IMG/VR virus record: IMGVR_UViG_2751185968_000010
From: a virus
Lineage: Duplodnaviria; Heunggongvirae; Uroviricota; Caudoviricetes
Length of the DNA: 8,544 bases
Direction: 5' to 3' (one strand)
Each line of letters starts with the position of its first letter. Position 1 is the stretch's first letter. Of this stretch, positions 3,335 through 8,544 are shown piece by piece. The notes under the pieces are model-generated. The model saw only the letters and a list, made by a program, of their open reading frames with translations, ran no database searches and was not told the origin of the DNA. Made by a program: the position numbers and the translations under genes.

Positions 3335-3586
3335 TTATTCTTCTGAAAAAGCAGAAAAGCCAGCTTTTATTCCGATCTCTTTCAATGCCTGTAATGAAGT
3401 GACAAACTCACCGTCGCGCAAGATAAATCCGTCCGTCACTCGGGCATCCACAAAATTAATTAACGCAGCCCCATTTTTTTGCAAACACACAATGCGGTAA
3501 TGACTAACAATATTTCCATTTTCAACGCACACAGCATAGAGGCCATCTTCACAAAAAATTTTACGCAGTTCTTCGATGTTCATCAT
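3335..3586 (-). CDS. Small hypothetical prophage protein (83 aa), immediately downstream of the hok locus
   Basis: ATG start with SD GGAAGGA 7 nt upstream. Same size and position as rem in the Qin prophage of K-12, as I recall that gene order; sequence identity not confirmed. Confidence 0.55.
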   Translation of the reverse strand: MMNIEELRKIFCEDGLYAVCVENGNIVSHYRIVCLQKNGAALINFVDARVTDGFILRDGEFVTSLQALKEIGIKAGFSAFSEE

Positions 3587-3664: not shown

Positions 3665-3694
3665 ATTCTATTCCGGCACCGTCCAGAACTTCAA
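3665..3694 (-). promoter_or_regulatory. Candidate sigma70 promoter for the small-gene/DUF968/rusA/Q operon
   Basis: Minus strand: -35 TTGAAG (3694-3689), 18-nt spacer, -10 TAGAAT (3670-3665). Located between the hok terminator and the next gene. Weak by itself. Confidence 0.25.
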
Positions 3695-3700
3695 ACGCGT

Positions 3701-3733
3701 TGAAAATAAAAACAAAAACCCGCCGAAGCGGGT
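3701..3733 (-). terminator. Rho-independent terminator at the hok mRNA 3' end
   Basis: Minus-strand RNA CCCGC-UUCG-GCGGG followed by UUUUUGUUUUUAUUUU. Just upstream on the RNA, CCUCAACGCACC is complementary to the mRNA 5' end GGUGCUUGAGG (fbi/tac-like pairing). Confidence 0.65.
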
Positions 3734-3802
3734 TAAGTGCGGGTGCGTTGAGGATGCCTGCCACATCAGAGGTGGCGAGGGATTTCTCCCTCGCCGGGTC
3801 TC

Positions 3803-3958
3803 TTACTCCTCAGGTTCGTAAGCTGTGAAGACAGCGACCTCCGTCTGGCCGGTTCGGATTCGTACCTCGCAGAGGTCTTTCCTCGTTACCAGTGCCGTCA
3901 CTATGACGGTTAAACAGATGACGATCAGGGCGATTAGCATCGCCTTTTGCTGCTTCAT
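3803..3958 (-). CDS. hokD: Hok-family type I toxin (HokD/RelF-like), 51 aa
   Basis: Translation MKQQKAMLIALIVICLTVIVTALVTRKDLCEVRIRTGQTEVAVFTAYEPEE matches my recollection of HokD (RelF) and is close to Gef. SD AAGGAGAAG upstream. Single TM helix followed by the conserved C-terminal domain. Confidence 0.9.
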   Translation of the reverse strand: MKQQKAMLIALIVICLTVIVTALVTRKDLCEVRIRTGQTEVAVFTAYEPEE

Positions 3959-4128
3959 AGCCTGCTTCTCCTTGCCTTTCGGCACGTAAGAGGCTAACCT
4001 ACGTGTGTAGAGCATAGATATGGCCTCAGATTAATGTTAAGCGTCTTGCCGGACGCGTAATGTTAACTGGGGCTTTTCTCTATCTGCCTTTGGTGTTGAT
4101 GCCCGAGGCAGATAGCCTCAAGCACCCG
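3959..4128 (-). promoter_or_regulatory. hok mRNA leader: tac-like 5' element, sok-target region and an in-frame upstream (mok-like) start at 4015-4013
   Basis: Minus-strand leader GGTGCTTGAGGCTATCTGCCTCGGGC... parallels the plasmid R1 hok leader (GGCGCTTGAGGCTTTCTGCCTCATGACG...) as I recall it. The upstream ATG opens a frame continuous with hok (track ORF 3803..4015). Confidence 0.5.
3986..4060 (+). ncRNA. Candidate Sok-like antisense RNA (type I antitoxin); ends approximate
   Basis: Plus strand CTTGCCTTTCGGCACGTAAGAGGCTAACCT... is positionally and sequence-wise analogous to the R1 sok promoter/5' region (..CTTGCGCAAAGCGCGGTAAGAGGCTATCCT..). Antisense to the mok-like start. Confidence 0.35.
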
Positions 4129-4133
4129 CAGCA

Positions 4134-4162
4134 ATTCTACTTAACTACCGTTACCTCGCCAA
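4134..4162 (-). promoter_or_regulatory. Candidate hok promoter
   Basis: Minus strand: -35 TTGGCG (4162-4157), 17-nt spacer, -10 TAGAAT (4139-4134), about 7 nt upstream of the inferred mRNA 5' end GGTGCTTGAGG. Confidence 0.4.
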
Positions 4163-4537
4163 TATGAAATCAATCAGAAAGGTGATCCATAAGAACAACA
4201 GCAAGACAATAAATTGCCATTACAGCAGCAATAGCCAGCGCACATTTGAGAACCAGCACCACAACCTCCTGTATTGGACGTACACCAGTCCTGATAAATA
4301 TGAGGCTGTCTCGTCAGTGATTCAATACAACTACTGGGTATAGTTTCTATGATTTTGTTCTGTGGAAATGGAAAACAGCAACCAGTCACCACCAGCACTT
4401 CTTTAAACATGCCAAGTCACACGCAAGCCAACATTATAGTTCCCTTTGAGCGAGCAGATGAAGCTAGCAAAAATATTGATCACTTAGGATGCATTACTAA
4501 CGTTGCTATGTGTTAACGAACAGGGAGTGGGTCATCA

Positions 4538-4553
4538 GCATAAATATTTATGC
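4538..4553. repeat. Perfect 16-bp palindrome GCATAAATATTTATGC about 150 bp upstream of the membrane-protein gene
   Basis: Read directly; the reverse complement is identical. Confidence 0.6.
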
Positions 4554-4700
4554 AGTAGGTTTCTTTTAGGACTAGATTAATCAAAAACATTTAGATAAAA
4601 TTATAAAATCAAGAAATTGGTGGCAATTAATCTTTAATTGTGCCAGCTGAATTTCGTTATTATAGAAGATTAGCTTTTTTTTGAATGTTTGGAGAGTAAA

Positions 4701-5480
4701 ATGTTAGAACCACCAAAGAGTTATAATGAAATGTTGCCTATGCTCCATAAGGCGACTTTTATTACTACATTTATATTTTACCTATCATTAGTCATTTATG
4801 GCTACATGCCATTGGTTGGCATTAATGCCAAGTATATCCCCCCCGTTAAAGACTACGAGGAATTTATTAAATGGATATTAACCTTTGGCATATTACCAAT
4901 TGCATCTTCAGTTTTTTGGTCAGTAATTAGTGGAGCTTTAGATCTACATAATAATGTAGCAAAAATTATTGGAATAAGGAAGATGTGGGATAGTCATTTA
5001 ATTATTAAACCATTAGCAAAAATTGCAGGCGTTACGAGAAAATTAACTACTGATGAATCTCACAAGGTAATGAGTAAACTGTATTACCCAGAAGTTAAAG
5101 AGTTAAAAGACAAACATTACGTTGAACTTTTCTGGAACAAAGTTTATTACTTTTGGGTTTTCTTTGAACATACAGTAATCGCATTTGTTACTATTTTAAT
5201 AATAAGTATCGCCAAATTAACAAATATATTCTCTGTTACTGGCTCTTTAATTAATCTTTGGTTGTGGATTATTTCTCTTGTCGCATTTGACTTCCTTATT
5301 TTCATAGCATCAGTTAAACCAAGAACAGAAAGCCAAGTAAGACAAATACCTGATAGCAAAATAAAAGAATTCTTTAACAATAACAATATTTTTTTAAACG
5401 AGGTTGATTTTGAATTACAAAATAAATGGAATAAACATACGTTCAGAAAATGCAGCGAAACCGCACACTATGCCATCTAA
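4701..5480 (+). CDS. Hypothetical integral membrane protein, 259 aa, four predicted TM helices
   Basis: ATG at 4701 with SD GGAGAG 4 nt upstream (track ORF starts at an upstream TTG). Hydrophobic segments ATFITTFIFYLSLVIYGYMPLVGI, WILTFGILPIASSVFWSVISGAL, VYYFWVFFEHTVIAFVTILIISIA, LINLWLWIISLVAFDFLIFIASV. A 780-nt open frame in 30% GC DNA is unlikely by chance. Confidence 0.7.
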   Translation: MLEPPKSYNEMLPMLHKATFITTFIFYLSLVIYGYMPLVGINAKYIPPVKDYEEFIKWILTFGILPIASSVFWSVISGALDLHNNVAKIIGIRKMWDSHLIIKPLAKIAGVTRKLTTDESHKVMSKLYYPEVKELKDKHYVELFWNKVYYFWVFFEHTVIAFVTILIISIAKLTNIFSVTGSLINLWLWIISLVAFDFLIFIASVKPRTESQVRQIPDSKIKEFFNNNNIFLNEVDFELQNKWNKHTFRKCSETAHYAI

Positions 5481-6063
5481 CTATCTCTGTAAACAGATTG
5501 AAAGCACTAATAAAAATGGCAATGCCCTTGATTTTGGATGTGGAAAACTTAGATATTCAGAACAATTAGTAAATAAATTTGAAACTGTGACATTTTTAGA
5601 TTCCAGAAGACAACTAGAAAGAGTGCAAATTATCAGAGGTGTACAAACCACGATTCCAGATTACGTGATAAATAACTATAAGAATGCTAATATTGTTTCT
5701 TATGAAAATATAGATAAAATAACAAATCATTATGATTTCATACTTTGCGCAAACGTGCTTTCCGCAATTCCATGTGAATCCACAATTCACAAAGTCCTCA
5801 GTGCGATTAGAGAATTATTAAAGAGTGATGGTGAAGCACTGATTGTCAATCAATACAAAAGTTCTTATTTCAAGAGGTACGAGAGCGGTATTAAACATTT
5901 GCATGGGTATATATACCAAAACTCTCGTAATGCTTTCTACTATGGTTTATTAGATGTGGATACTGTAAGTAAAATATGCTCAGATAATAATTTAGAAATA
6001 ATAAAATCATGGAGCAAAGCAGGTAGTTCATATGTGGTTGTTGGTAAACATATACATATTTAG
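5470..6063 (+). CDS. Small class-I SAM-dependent methyltransferase (197 aa from ATG 5470; alternative TTG starts at 5404/5410)
   Basis: Rossmann MTase motifs in order: motif I ALDFGCGKL, acidic post-I VTFLD, motif II DFILCANVL, motif III LLKSDGEALIV. No (D/N/S)PP(Y/F) motif, so probably not a DNA amino-MTase. ATG 5470 overlaps the upstream stop (ATGCCATCTAA). Confidence 0.65.
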   Translation: MPSNYLCKQIESTNKNGNALDFGCGKLRYSEQLVNKFETVTFLDSRRQLERVQIIRGVQTTIPDYVINNYKNANIVSYENIDKITNHYDFILCANVLSAIPCESTIHKVLSAIRELLKSDGEALIVNQYKSSYFKRYESGIKHLHGYIYQNSRNAFYYGLLDVDTVSKICSDNNLEIIKSWSKAGSSYVVVGKHIHI

Positions 6064-6377
6064 TTTATTTCAACAAATTATTAGAAAGAGTGATTTGCTT
6101 GTTAATTATTAGCTCGGCAGTGCCGGATCAACATGACCCTGCCACTTAGGCCATTGCCGGTTTATCTACTTTTGTAAGGTTCAGCATGAAGTTTTTATAT
6201 ACTCTTCCTAATATCAATAGTGATGCTCGCTTATGTTAGCTGCTTCTTGTACATAGTAGCCTTCTCCGACAGTACTGCAATGAGCGGAGAGTAAAAGTCG
6301 ATAAACAATAAGGAGGTTCACAATAAATATTTCTCGGTGAAACTTTCAAAGCATTCTCTGTTTTGCTAAATCGACAA

Positions 6378-7277
6378 TTATAAATCAACAACATTTAGTG
6401 TTATATCAATATTATTTAGCCTTGCAATCTCTGATGAATCACTTGCTATTTTAGCTTTTAATTTATCAATATTAATCATATCTTCATGGCTTATATAAAC
6501 CATATCACCTTGGTTAACTTTAGATTTGTTCACTATGGCTTGAATAACAGACAAATCATCCATTACACCTCTCATAAATTTCACCATGCTTTGATCTTTG
6601 AAGTCAGATATCGATTTTGAACGTTGCTTACGTTGAATTGTTCCTTTTGTAATTACTTCATTAATTTCTTTTAAACCAGTGAGCATATCAGACAGACTGC
6701 CTTCGCAACTCATCCGATGTTTTATTGCATTGCGATTAATAATATTGAGTATAATTTCGAGTGAATCTTTATCACTCCATGGATGTAATGATGTATAATC
6801 ATGATGGCGTCGAATGGCGTCAATCATATCCTGGACCATATCTTCATCTGCTTTATCGCAAAGTTCATTCACGAAATAGCTGGGGTCGATTATTTTACAA
6901 TAACTTGGAGTTAGGTATCTTGAGGCTTTACAAAAACCAAAAATATATAAAGTAGAGTATTTATCTTTCAGACTCTCTCCTATTTCATTTGTTTCCTCAA
7001 AAGATTCGATAGTTTTTTTAATTTTTGCTGGACTTGCATTCGTAGTAACTTGAACTGCTATCATGTTTTTATTATCAGCTAAATCAATGGCGGGAAAATT
7101 AACTTTAATCTGATTCATGTTTACCAGTTCACCCATTTTCAGCGCGCGAAACATAAAGATGGTCAATGACTCAATTATTCTTTCCATGTCATGAAAGCCT
7201 GCCTGTTTGCGTTGCGCGATATAAAGCTGGAGTAGTGCAATATCACTCTGTAAGTTTCTAATAAGTGGATCAATCAT
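6378..7277 (-). CDS. Hypothetical 299-aa protein with a candidate HEPN-type R-N-x-x-x-H motif (putative RNase/abortive-infection-like)
   Basis: ATG start with SD AAGGA 9 nt upstream. Residues 182-187 RNAIKH (nt 6734-6717), in a predicted helical context LEIILNIINRNAIKHRMS, fit the HEPN Rx4-6H signature. N-terminal region has a strand-like AIDLADNKNMIAVQVTT segment. No family assignment is possible without a search. Confidence 0.65.
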   Translation of the reverse strand: MIDPLIRNLQSDIALLQLYIAQRKQAGFHDMERIIESLTIFMFRALKMGELVNMNQIKVNFPAIDLADNKNMIAVQVTTNASPAKIKKTIESFEETNEIGESLKDKYSTLYIFGFCKASRYLTPSYCKIIDPSYFVNELCDKADEDMVQDMIDAIRRHHDYTSLHPWSDKDSLEIILNIINRNAIKHRMSCEGSLSDMLTGLKEINEVITKGTIQRKQRSKSISDFKDQSMVKFMRGVMDDLSVIQAIVNKSKVNQGDMVYISHEDMINIDKLKAKIASDSSEIARLNNIDITLNVVDL

Positions 7278-7992: not shown

Positions 7993-8183
7993 TTATCCTC
8001 TGAAACCAGGCGGAATTTCTGTATCCGGTTCAGAAATATGATTAACACAACGCTGTACAGGTGAACGCCCCAGGCGGATGACCAGTTCGTCCCATTTTTC
8101 GCGGAGCTTTGACGGGCTCATGATGTTTTTTACCCAGAACGGATCCCGCTGTACCCGACCAAACATTTCACAAATTTGTCTGT
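7993..8183 (-). pseudogene. Possible 3' remnant of a gene truncated by the IS insertion (open frame abutting the IS end)
   Basis: Minus-strand frame open from the IS junction (8183) to a stop at 7995-7993: ...RQICEMFGRVQRDPFWVKNIMSPSKLREKWDELVIRLGRSPVQRCVNHISEPDTEIPPGFRG. Could also be non-coding. Confidence 0.25.
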
Positions 8184-8544
8184 TGAACCGCCCCGGGAAT
8201 CCTGGAGACTAAACTCCCTGAGAAAGAGGTAAACAGGATGACTAAAAATACTCGTTTTTCCCCCGAAGTCCGTCAGAGGGCGATTCGTATGGTTCTGGAA
8301 AGTCAGGGCGAATATGACTCACAGTGGGCGGCAATTTGTTCCATTGCCCCAAAGATTGGCTGTACACCGGAGACTCTGCGTGTCTGGGTACGCCAGCATG
8401 AGCGGGATACCGGAGGCGGTGATGGCGGGCTCACCACCGCTGAACGTCAGCGTCTGAAAGAGCTGGAACGTGAAAATCGTGAACTGCGCCGCAGTAACGA
8501 TATCCTTCGCCAGGCTTCCGCTTATTTTGCGAAGGCGGAGTTCG
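8184..8544 (+). mobile_element. IS3-family insertion sequence, left end (IS629-like); continues beyond the window
   Basis: Terminal sequence TGAACCGCCCCGGGAATCCTGGAGACTAAAC... starting with TG, followed 54 nt later by the OrfA start; matches my recollection of the IS629 left end. Confidence 0.8.
8238..8544 (+). CDS. IS3-family transposase OrfA (HTH subunit), first 102 codons; 3' end outside the window
   Basis: Translation [102 protein letters not shown] matches IS629/IS1203-type OrfA as I remember it. SD GAGG upstream. Confidence 0.9.

Follow-up and report, generated by a model that had tools for sequence, protein, structure and literature searches.

Sequence evidence for an intact hokD/sokD toxin-antitoxin cassette in a Qin/Rac-like lambdoid prophage of E. 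coli

Does the small hok gene at 3701-4162 of the window (by which we mean the whole 8,544-nucleotide stretch of phage DNA that was analyzed) belong to a complete type I toxin-antitoxin locus, or is it a decaying remnant with non-functional antisense and leader elements? The second possibility comes to mind because hokD (relF) of E. coli K-12 is such a remnant, without mok, sok, tac, and ucb, and because the gene is labelled "RelF inactive antibacterial toxin" in some phage records. We conclude that 3701-4162 is very probably an intact hokD/sokD cassette (the equivalent of the hokW/sokW type): a type I toxin-antitoxin module of the hok/sok family, which a Qin/Rac-like lambdoid prophage of E. 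coli carries as a moron in its early-right region. Such a cassette is already known from annotated phage records, and it is ordinary, given how widespread this variant is: of 5426 complete E. coli genomes, 3008, or more than half, have at least 80% of a 551-nt region covered, and 771 records reach an identity of 99% or more. E. coli 55989 and Ecol_AZ155 are examples of strains with the exact allele of the window. The initial annotation had described an apparently intact hok/sok-type locus with all of its regulatory elements. Every element that it listed is present, and its span runs exactly from the −35 hexamer of the hok promoter to just beyond the terminator, although it left unstated that the locus lies on the minus strand. 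More precisely, mok and hok are on the minus strand and Sok is on the plus strand. (In the numbering of the mok-hok mRNA, nucleotide n corresponds to window position 4128-n.)

The family assignment is based on a full-length match to the Rfam sok model, on the Pfam HOK_GEF family, and on a PHROG group described as "MokW-like host killing." Annotation of the surrounding genes confirmed that the locus is in a lambdoid prophage. Its neighbors in the early-right operon are rem on one side and a set of accessory genes on the other, and the locus is upstream of Q. The hok coding sequence (3803-3958, minus strand; Shine-Dalgarno GGAG at 3971-3968, stop codon TAA at 3805-3803) encodes a 51-amino-acid protein with the features of a small Hok/Gef membrane toxin (about 50 amino acids, one transmembrane helix, and a conserved cysteine). 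Because the NCBIfam models for the Hok family match only below their curated cut-offs (48.5 vs. 73), the name HokD rests on exact identity to a RefSeq protein, WP_000813254.1, which PGAP names HokD.

The mok reading frame (3803-4015, minus strand) is 70 codons long, and in the list of open reading frames it consists of a basic extension of 19 amino acids, MLYTRRLASYVPKGKEKQA, followed by Hok. As the mok ATG is at 4015 and the hok ATG is at 3958, the offset is 57 nt and the two are in frame. The 70-amino-acid product matches PF01848 (HOK_GEF) with 81.6 bits (cut-off 22, E = 2.9e-23) and PHROG 251 with E = 7.8e-33. Its Shine-Dalgarno sequence, GAGG (4024-4027, minus strand), was read directly from the sequence and lies 8 nt upstream of the AUG; the motif and the spacing are those of plasmid R1, where GAGG is at 105-108 (PMC9841398). 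Thus, mok is a leader frame that overlaps hok in frame, and its AUG is covered by the 5' tail of the predicted Sok RNA (4007-4021). It is not an R1-type Mok: it matches HOK_GEF only and not DUF5431, and the minus strand has no out-of-frame open reading frame of at least 30 amino acids overlapping hok. The locus belongs to the in-frame subgroup typified by mokC and mokW. The initial annotation had noted the in-frame start and had contrasted it with an out-of-frame mok in R1. Both statements were correct (in the published numbering of R1, the mok AUG is at 116-118 and the hok AUG is at 174-176, or 58 nt apart; PMC9841398), so the contrast with R1 holds, but it is not special to this copy. Besides K-12 mokC and mokW, 58 of 66 close relatives have mok in frame, and the other 8 have a 19-codon frame whose stop overlaps the hok start as AUGA.

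The hok promoter (4134-4162, minus strand) has a −35 of TTGGCG (4162-4157), a 17-nt spacer, and a −10 of TAGAAT (4139-4134). It was called independently by a consensus scan, with 9 of 12 matches, and its geometry is that of R1 (the −10, 6 nt, and then G as the +1). The −10 is conserved among relatives, and the −35 lies within a variable flank. Transcription would begin at G4127, which aligns with position 1 of the Rfam model and with the +1 of R1, and would end at the T-run of an intrinsic terminator. The predicted full-length mok-hok mRNA is about 415-419 nt (3709-4127, minus strand), with both ends placed by homology only. The terminator (3705-3734, minus strand) was found by a terminator scan and consists of AACCCGC-UUCG-GCGGGUU at 3734-3717 followed by the T-run (fold of −11.8 kcal/mol). 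The minimum-free-energy fold of the 419-nt RNA is −176.5 kcal/mol (z = −7.3).

The 5' leader was said to resemble that of R1 hok, and it does: Rfam RF01794 (sok) matches from 4127 to 3953 over its full length (cmscan, model positions 1-157 of 157), with 114 bits (gathering score 59, E = 4.8e-26). The architecture of this model is that of a long, structured hok leader, with a tac-ucb stem, a Sok terminator/target stem, and a hairpin of the Shine-Dalgarno sequence with dcb. The proposed complementarity of the 3' region to the 5' end was also borne out. The translational activator element tac (GGGUGCUUGAGG, 4116-4127, minus strand) forms 12 base pairs with the fold-back inhibitory element fbi (CCUCAAcGCACCC, 3741-3753, minus strand; 4127-4116 with 3753-3741, with C3747 bulged), and the minimum-free-energy fold of the full-length RNA includes these pairs. 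The complement pattern of tac matches only at fbi and at tac itself, where chance would give 0.01 matches. In the Rfam consensus structure, tac pairs instead with ucb.

The first 32 nt of the nascent transcript fold into a hairpin (4098-4126, minus strand; 12 bp, −21.4 kcal/mol, z = −5.5) that is predicted to be metastable and to sequester tac. The ucb or anti-SD box (AAGCCCCAG, 4067-4075, minus strand) pairs with the region of the mok Shine-Dalgarno sequence in the full-length fold. The downstream complementary box dcb (UUAGCCUCUUA, 3987-3997, minus strand), which shares positions with the Sok −10 of the opposite strand, forms a GAGGC/GCCUC stem with the mok Shine-Dalgarno sequence. Finally, a hairpin of the form GGCGAGGGA-GAAA-UCCCUCGCC (3774-3795, minus strand; −19.7 kcal/mol, z = −7.3) lies between the hok stop codon and fbi. 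It is the predicted 3' end of the processed (truncated and translatable) mRNA, and this putative structural prerequisite is the one part of 3' processing that is seen here. As a positive control, the R1 mRNA was folded at full length, and its tac-fbi and ucb-SD pair in the same way. The minimum-free-energy fold of the truncated window RNA has only a partial tac-ucb stem, but folding of the truncated R1 RNA likewise misses its published open form, so we did not use such folds as a test of the open form.

On the opposite strand, a cis-encoded Sok RNA with its own promoter and its own terminator (a hairpin and a U-tail) is predicted, in agreement with the "plausible antisense sok region" of the initial annotation. 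The promoter (3972-4000, plus strand) has a −35 of TTGCCT (3972-3977), a 17-nt spacer, and a −10 of TAACCT (3995-4000), and all three are base-for-base identical to those of sokW of phage VT2-Sakai. It is equivalent in position to the TTGCGC-17-TATCCT of R1. Only 3 of the 6 positions of its −10 fit the consensus, and the generic consensus scan scores the promoter under its threshold; we do not count this against it because the R1 Sok promoter would also be missed, by the same hexamer counts. The predicted RNA is about 75 nt (4007-4081, plus strand), with a single-stranded 5' tail (4007-4021), a hairpin (4022-4074), and a U-rich tail, and it folds with −29.7 kcal/mol (z = −5.3). The start near G4007 corresponds to the annotated 5' end of sokW, which is the complement of nucleotide 9 of mokW, and the overall geometry is that of the annotated sokW and sokC.

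These elements are conserved among relatives of the locus, which were sampled for encoding an identical Hok protein (the diversity at hok third-codon positions within the set is 0.012). All 65 intact relatives keep every pairing. Both tac itself and the 7-bp ucb-tac stem of the open Rfam structure are kept in 65 of 65, as is the SD-dcb stem. For tac-fbi, 98.8% of cells are paired, and fbi varies only at the bulge base or by G-C to G-U changes. Because tac is invariant, double changes are not possible in tac/fbi among close relatives, and none was seen; support for this helix comes from R1, where the changes on the two sides are complementary (by eye). Among these relatives, 12 pairs are changed on both sides, against 3.6 in shuffles. 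A double change at ucb, from CAG/CUG to CAC/GUG, is compensatory in 5 relatives, and the GAAA hairpin is paired in 99% of cells, with G-U, A-U, and G-C variation. According to the initial annotation, disruption of the sok promoter or of the fbi/tac pairing relative to functional loci would speak against an intact locus; neither is disrupted, as the Sok promoter is that of sokW and tac/fbi is kept in 65 of 65. We therefore reject, at the level of the sequence, the reading of a pseudogene or remnant, which we consider extremely improbable. The whole leader is present, with an end-to-end match to Rfam; the reading frames are open; the promoter, tac/fbi, ucb, dcb, and both terminators are intact and conserved; and homology begins at the K-12-type junction in only 3 of 71 distinct relative sequences (two of these being alignment rows L037 and L041).

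Given this anatomy and the established model for R1, we propose the following mechanism for the window cassette. A modest constitutive promoter would make an mok-hok mRNA of about 417 nt. While the RNA is nascent, its 5' end would fold into the strong local hairpin that hides tac. In the finished RNA, tac would pair with fbi, and ucb would cover the mok ribosome-binding site, so the full-length RNA should be neither translated nor bound by Sok. Slow 3'-exonucleolytic trimming to the GAAA hairpin would then remove fbi, which would allow tac to pair with ucb and would present the mok Shine-Dalgarno sequence and AUG in the SD/dcb hairpin. Meanwhile, an abundant but unstable Sok would be made off the other strand, with its start 9 nt inside mok. 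The single-stranded 5' tail of Sok would pair with the SD/dcb hairpin, block translation of mok, and trigger cleavage of the duplex. If Sok were no longer synthesized, because the element had been lost, transcription had been shut off, or SOS/prophage induction had occurred, initiation by ribosomes would take place at mok. Because mok is in frame, they would read straight into hok, and they could also open the hok start site; the membrane toxin would be made.

Whether the cassette acts in this way in the cell, and to what end, is where the reasonable alternatives lie. From its sequence and its likeness to the functional hokW/sokW, we predict that it is active. It could also be intact in sequence and yet physiologically quiet, that is, transcribed and regulated by Sok but with no killing upon loss or transcription arrest, in which case recombination and hitch-hiking with the prophage would maintain it. 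Other chromosomal hok loci set a precedent: the intact-looking hokA, hokB, and hokC gave no post-segregational killing (Pedersen and Gerdes 1999, as reported in a bioRxiv preprint, 10.1101/2025.08.07.668861). Also, the truncation of the K-12 copy shows that loss is tolerated. However, we consider a quiet cassette unlikely. The 94%-identical hokW/sokW system is an experimentally functional type I toxin-antitoxin system in which HokW is toxic and is neutralized by its Sok, a mutation in the sokW −10 abolishes the antitoxin activity, and the locus affects the release of phage Sp5 (PMC8621323). The retention of every pairing by the 65 intact relatives argues in the same direction, within a set chosen for identical Hok.

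An active cassette need not serve maintenance. With the same molecular mechanism, its primary role could be as a lysis helper coupled to induction or as an abortive-infection (phage-exclusion) device of the lysogen, and the trigger would be the collapse of Sok transcription in SOS or superinfection. This is a real possibility, although we lean slightly against it. For hokW/sokW, mitomycin C lowers sokW RNA and raises HokW in a way that depends on RecA, and phage release falls by half when the locus is deleted (PMC8621323). The hok/sok of R1 excludes phage T4, according to work cited in PMC10305079, and the window cassette adjoins accessory genes in the early-right operon. On the other hand, the window prophage may be cryptic, like Qin, and a survey found no enrichment of hok near defense systems (bioRxiv 10.1101/2025.08.07.668861).

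The relatives of the intact cassette also reveal a hypervariable block (4004-4023), which comprises the spacer between the Shine-Dalgarno sequence and the AUG as well as mok codons 2-5 and which the Sok 5' tail targets. The mean pairwise difference in this block is 0.29 per site, as compared to 0.06-0.08 in the rest of the untranslated regions (which are otherwise 92-94% identical) and 0.012 at hok third-codon positions, so the block is about 25-30 times as diverse as the latter. At least 14 discrete alleles occur, and the median number of differences is 7 in 20 nt. This is the one mildly new observation here. On a speculative reading, the Sok 5' tail and its target (about 15-20 nt) may be a deliberately diversified "address," with the pattern suggesting old specificity alleles that are held apart by selection while recombination homogenizes the remainder, and, linked to this, the mok frame may be free to change and the 70-amino-acid, N-terminally extended Hok may be the primary product of the in-frame form; we think this combination quite improbable. 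If true, such addresses could stop co-resident cassettes in polylysogens from cross-protecting one another. There is no evidence for allele exclusion among co-resident copies. A crude genome-wide count found the conserved leader at 8620 places in 4160 genomes and the window's Sok-tail allele 576 times across 535 genomes (1.08 per genome), which is about what we estimate for random assortment, and the relatedness of strains and phage immunity confound this comparison. Of two same-genome pairs among the IMG/VR loci that we examined, one pair differed in its Sok-tail allele and the other was identical.

The locus leaves the current understanding of hok/sok unchanged, and it matters mainly for annotation. 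In these genomes, PGAP marks only the 156-nt hokD coding sequence and omits mok, the Sok RNA, and about 260 nt of regulatory RNA. As a result, a complete cassette appears in thousands of E. coli genomes as an orphan toxin gene. Also, the fact that near-identical copies differ in their mok frame gives natural support to the published view that it is the translation of mok, and not the Mok peptide, that matters.

Among known systems, hok/sok (parB) of R1 has its elements in the same order as the window: promoter, tac, metastable hairpin, ucb, Sok terminator/target stem, mok Shine-Dalgarno GAGG, mok AUG, dcb, hok, protective hairpin, fbi, and UUCG hairpin. Its dcb, UAGCCUCUUAC, is identical to the window's, and the truncated R1 mRNA (Tr-hok) ends at +361 at a hairpin that has the same position as the window's GAAA hairpin (PMC9841398). 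Its tac/fbi (GGCGC/GCGCC vs. GGGUGC/GCACCC in the window) differs in a complementary way. In contrast, R1 Hok is only 42% identical to the window Hok; the R1 mok has 70 codons in a frame other than that of hok and belongs to DUF5431 (E = 2.6e-41), while the window mok is an in-frame extension; the Sok hairpin of the window is about 16 nt longer; and the setting is a plasmid instead of a prophage. The mokC/hokC/sokC (gef) locus of K-12 is like the window in that mok is in frame and shares its stop codon with hokC, the annotated sokC starts 9 nt inside mokC, and the sequence of tac (GGGUGCUUGAGGC) is the same. Unlike the window cassette, it is in the core chromosome with an IS186 disruption downstream, its sokC hairpin is shorter, and HokC differs from HokD at several residues.

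K-12 hokD in the Qin prophage encodes a protein identical to the window's and has an identical 3' untranslated region, fbi, terminator, and downstream context (rem, ydfU with DUF968, and Q). However, the homology ends 14 nt upstream of the hok ATG, and beyond that point relB-relE stand in place of the Sok promoter, the mok start, ucb, tac, and the hok promoter. Therefore, the window holds the untruncated form of the same locus, and it shows the textbook hokD/relF locus as it was before relBE displaced its control region. The mokW/hokW/sokW locus of the Stx2 phages VT2-Sakai (Sp5) and 933W is 93.8% identical in nucleotide sequence over 89% of the window locus. The VT2-Sakai cassette occupies a different position in the phage genome; it is without the UUCG terminator downstream of fbi, which is found in the window and in most relatives; its Sok 5' tail/target differs at 6 of 17 positions; and the C-terminus is FVDYESEK in HokW and FTAYEPEE in the window. 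Otherwise, it too is in a lambdoid prophage, with a 70-amino-acid, in-frame mokW that shares its stop codon with hokW and with the 5' end of Sok opposite nucleotide 9 of mok, and its hok promoter −10, tac, long 5' hairpin, ucb, Sok hairpin, Sok promoter, dcb, and fbi are identical to those of the window.

The hok mRNA is encoded on the minus strand, and we number it so that nucleotide n lies at window position 4128-n. In a whole-window scan, the sole Rfam match above the gathering score was to RF01794 (sok), which runs from 4127 to 3953 (114 bits, cut-off 59) and spans the model from end to end. The initial annotation had described an apparently intact hok/sok-type type I toxin-antitoxin locus at 3701-4162, and the elements are indeed found there. 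The hok promoter (TTGGCG and TAGAAT with a 17-nt spacer, 4162-4134) is followed by the +1 (a G at 4127, which we infer from Rfam position 1 and from the spacing to the -10 as in plasmid R1), tac (GGGUGCUUGAGG, 4127-4116), a local 5' hairpin that sequesters tac (4126-4098; fold of -21.4 kcal/mol, z -5.5), ucb (4075-4067), mok's Shine-Dalgarno sequence (SD; GAGG, 4027-4024), the mok ATG from the ORF list (4015), and dcb (UUAGCCUCUUA, 3997-3987). Next come the hok SD (3971-3968, read from the sequence), the hok coding sequence (3958-3803), a GAAA-tetraloop hairpin (3795-3774; fold of -19.7 kcal/mol, z -7.3), fbi (CCUCAAcGCACCC, 3753-3741), and the UUCG terminator with its T-run (3734-3705), which had also been recognized initially.

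The proposed 5'/3' complementarity holds as well. With a gap of 0-1 nt allowed, the complement of tac was found nowhere except at fbi, apart from the trivial match to tac (0.01 matches expected by chance). The 419-nt RNA folds at -176.5 kcal/mol, versus -129.7 ± 6.4 for shuffled sequences (z -7.3), and in its minimum free energy (MFE) structure, tac and fbi form a 12-bp helix and the mok SD is partly covered. The plausible antisense sok region is borne out on the plus strand: a promoter at 3972-4000 (-35 TTGCCT, 3972-3977; 17-nt spacer; -10 TAACCT, 3995-4000), a predicted start at about G4007, a single-stranded 5' tail (4007-4021), a long hairpin (4022-4074; fold of -29.7 kcal/mol, z -5.3), and a U-rich tail to 4081. 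Thus, the reading as a hok/sok-type locus with its regulatory elements was right, and the cassette appears intact by every criterion that can be tested on sequence.

These features are conserved among relatives. Scanning IMG/VR with Hok yielded 80 loci, all of which encode an identical 51-amino-acid Hok, with 71 distinct nucleotide sequences (87-100% identity). In an alignment of 67 of these loci with the window, homology extends from about 4147, just upstream of the hok -10, to about 3713 in the terminator T-run. An entropy profile shows that the flanks are unrelated between loci, with several flank types on both sides, so the cassette behaves as a discrete module that moves as a unit, with boundaries near the transcript ends. 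The -35 hexamer of the hok promoter falls in the variable flank. When the window's own MFE pairs were scored across the alignment, standard pairs were present in 95.1% of cells, versus 33-43% if the 3' partners were slid by 1-3 columns, and 12 pairs had changes on both sides (3.6 ± 1.6 in shuffles); these counts document conservation and are not independent proof, as the structure came from the window itself. Covariation is modest because divergence is low. In the tac-fbi helix, 98.8% of cells are paired (two truncated rows of the K-12 type account for all exceptions), and the tac-ucb stem (7 bp) and SD-dcb stem (5 bp) of the Rfam "open" structure are kept in all 65 of 65 intact loci. Relative to R1, there are complementary changes on both sides of tac/fbi (GGCGC/GCGCC in R1, GGGUGC/GCACCC in the window) and of ucb/SD (CCGU/ACGAGG in R1, CCAG/CUGAGG in the window). 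As a control, we folded R1 RNAs: the MFE structure of the full-length RNA (398 nt) contains tac-fbi and ucb-SD, and the published open form is absent from that of the truncated RNA, so MFE structures of the truncated species carry no weight for or against.

The ORF list includes a 70-codon minus-strand ORF at 3803-4015 that matches HOK_GEF in Pfam (81.6 bits) and PHROG 251 ("MokW-like host killing"). Its last 51 residues, from the ATG at 3958, are MKQQKAMLIALIVICLTVIVTALVTRKDLCEVRIRTGQTEVAVFTAYEPEE, with 42% identity to R1 Hok. The codon for Tyr47 of Hok (UAC) and the next G form a UACG context (3817-3820, minus strand), a motif that is conserved here; at the same position, the K-12 hokD mRNA is reported to undergo TadA-dependent A-to-I editing, from Tyr to Cys, at a low level of 6% (PMC12214031).

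The upstream mok-like start was noted initially to be in frame with hok, and with 57 nt between the two ATGs, mok is an in-frame 19-amino-acid extension of Hok. The statement that R1 mok is out of frame was also correct: in the canonical R1-type locus (100% identity in many plasmids), the mok ATG precedes the hok ATG by 58 nt, and the 70-codon Mok, which matches DUF5431 in Pfam, is in another frame. Published R1 numbering agrees (mok AUG 116-118, hok AUG 174-176; PMC9841398). In this branch of the family, in-frame mok is the usual state, since mok and hok share a stop codon in K-12 mokC/hokC and in mokW/hokW and are in frame in 58 of 66 distinct relatives. The other 8 relatives (L007, L017, L026, L029, L043, L058, L062, and L083) have a net 1-nt deletion within the mok region (some 56 nt before the hok ATG, which is at 701), so that mok is a 19-codon ORF (MRHIEISLLRTERSRRSRL) whose UGA overlaps the hok AUG (AUGA). 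Such a stop/start overlap is a classic coupling arrangement, and the AUGA type is a third architecture beside the in-frame form and the out-of-frame form of R1. The presence of three architectures among close relatives agrees with experiments concluding that what counts is translation of mok as far as the start region of hok, and not the peptide itself (PMC9841398).

Within the cassette, variation peaks at 4004-4023, a stretch that comprises, on both strands, the SD-AUG spacer and mok codons 2-5 and coincides with the single-stranded tail of Sok (4007-4021) and its target. Among relatives that all encode an identical Hok, the mean pairwise difference here is 0.29-0.34 per site, compared to 0.06-0.08 in other parts of the UTR and 0.012 at third-codon positions of hok. 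The stretch falls into 14 discrete alleles, whose median difference is 7 of 20 nt. This could reflect relaxed constraint, as a cis-antisense pair stays complementary whatever mutates. It seems improbable that the alleles are instead maintained for specificity, as a kind of "address." Of 5426 complete E. coli genomes, 535 carry the window's allele, and a crude count across these genomes found no depletion of same-allele copies within genomes: there are 1.08 copies per carrying genome, which is about the random-assortment estimate given 2.07 leader copies per positive genome.

The elements and pairings are demonstrated in the window itself, and the mechanism would most likely be as in R1. Tac would be trapped co-transcriptionally in the 5' hairpin; the tac-fbi helix would then lock the full-length RNA, with the mok SD covered by ucb. 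Slow 3' trimming back to the GAAA hairpin would let the RNA refold into the tac-ucb pairing and the SD-dcb hairpin. Sok would bind over the mok start region, leading to cleavage of the duplex, and toxin would be made once Sok was no longer replenished. The transcript ends, processing, RNase dependence, and killing are presumed by analogy to R1 and hokW/sokW. Biologically, the cassette could serve to maintain the prophage, to assist lysis at induction (as for phage Sp5), or to exclude other phages.

Annotations of identical genomes place the cassette in a lambdoid prophage. In order of transcription on the hok strand, hokD is preceded by genes for a Cro/CI-type regulator, a YdaT-family protein, a DUF977 protein, and a SMEK-domain protein, and is followed by rem, a hypothetical gene, DUF968 (ydfU-like), RusA, and antiterminator Q, past which are a DNA methyltransferase gene and tRNA genes. 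The interval from the SMEK gene to hokD also holds two genes on the opposite strand, one hypothetical and one for a SAM-methyltransferase. An accessory (moron-like) block at 4689-7277 adjoins the cassette and encodes the hypothetical protein (no PHROG match) and the class I SAM-dependent methyltransferase, plus the SMEK-domain protein in the reverse orientation to both; the corresponding place in Qin of K-12 holds relBE-ydfV-flxA. About 540 nt upstream of the hok promoter (4163-4700) are without annotation in RefSeq genomes; a 78-amino-acid cysteine-rich ORF at 4174-4410 (minus strand) has no Pfam or PHROG match. A promoter-like minus-strand sequence (TTGAAG and TAGAAT with an 18-nt spacer, 3665-3694), located between the hok terminator and rem (3335-3586), may be the rem promoter. 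Finally, the best genome matches (100% identity) end at 8183, and the last ~360 nt (8184-8544) are uncovered among the matches listed, which suggests a mosaic junction inside the replication-region gene.

The locus is already known, as a prophage hok/sok of the hokD/hokW type. Many E. coli chromosomes match the surrounding 551 nt at 100% identity, 3008 of 5426 complete E. coli genomes cover at least 80% of this region, and the coding sequence is annotated there as "type I toxin-antitoxin system toxin HokD." In K-12, hokD has the same rem-hokD context, in the Qin prophage, but homology to the window does not reach farther than 14 nt upstream of the hok ATG, and relB-relE stand where the window has the Sok promoter, mok start, ucb, tac, and hok promoter. 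Thus, the window has the classical hokD/relF locus in untruncated form. In a phage collection, 79 records match the locus, including the Stx2 phage VT2-Sakai (AP000422), which is annotated with mokW, hokW, and the antisense RNA sokW. hokW/sokW is a working type I system: it is toxic, it is neutralized by sokW from its own promoter, mitomycin C depletes sokW and induces HokW, and the system influences Sp5 phage release (PMC8621323). In a pairwise alignment, VT2-Sakai and the window are identical in the hok -10, tac, 5' hairpin, ucb, Sok hairpin, Sok promoter, dcb, and fbi, with differences clustered in the Sok tail, the C-terminus of Hok, and the region past fbi. There, VT2-Sakai loses homology directly after fbi and lacks the UUCG terminator hairpin that the window has at 3705-3734. 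The R1 full-length mRNA as published (398 nt) ends just after fbi, and R1-type plasmids have an equivalent UUCG hairpin 8 nt beyond it.
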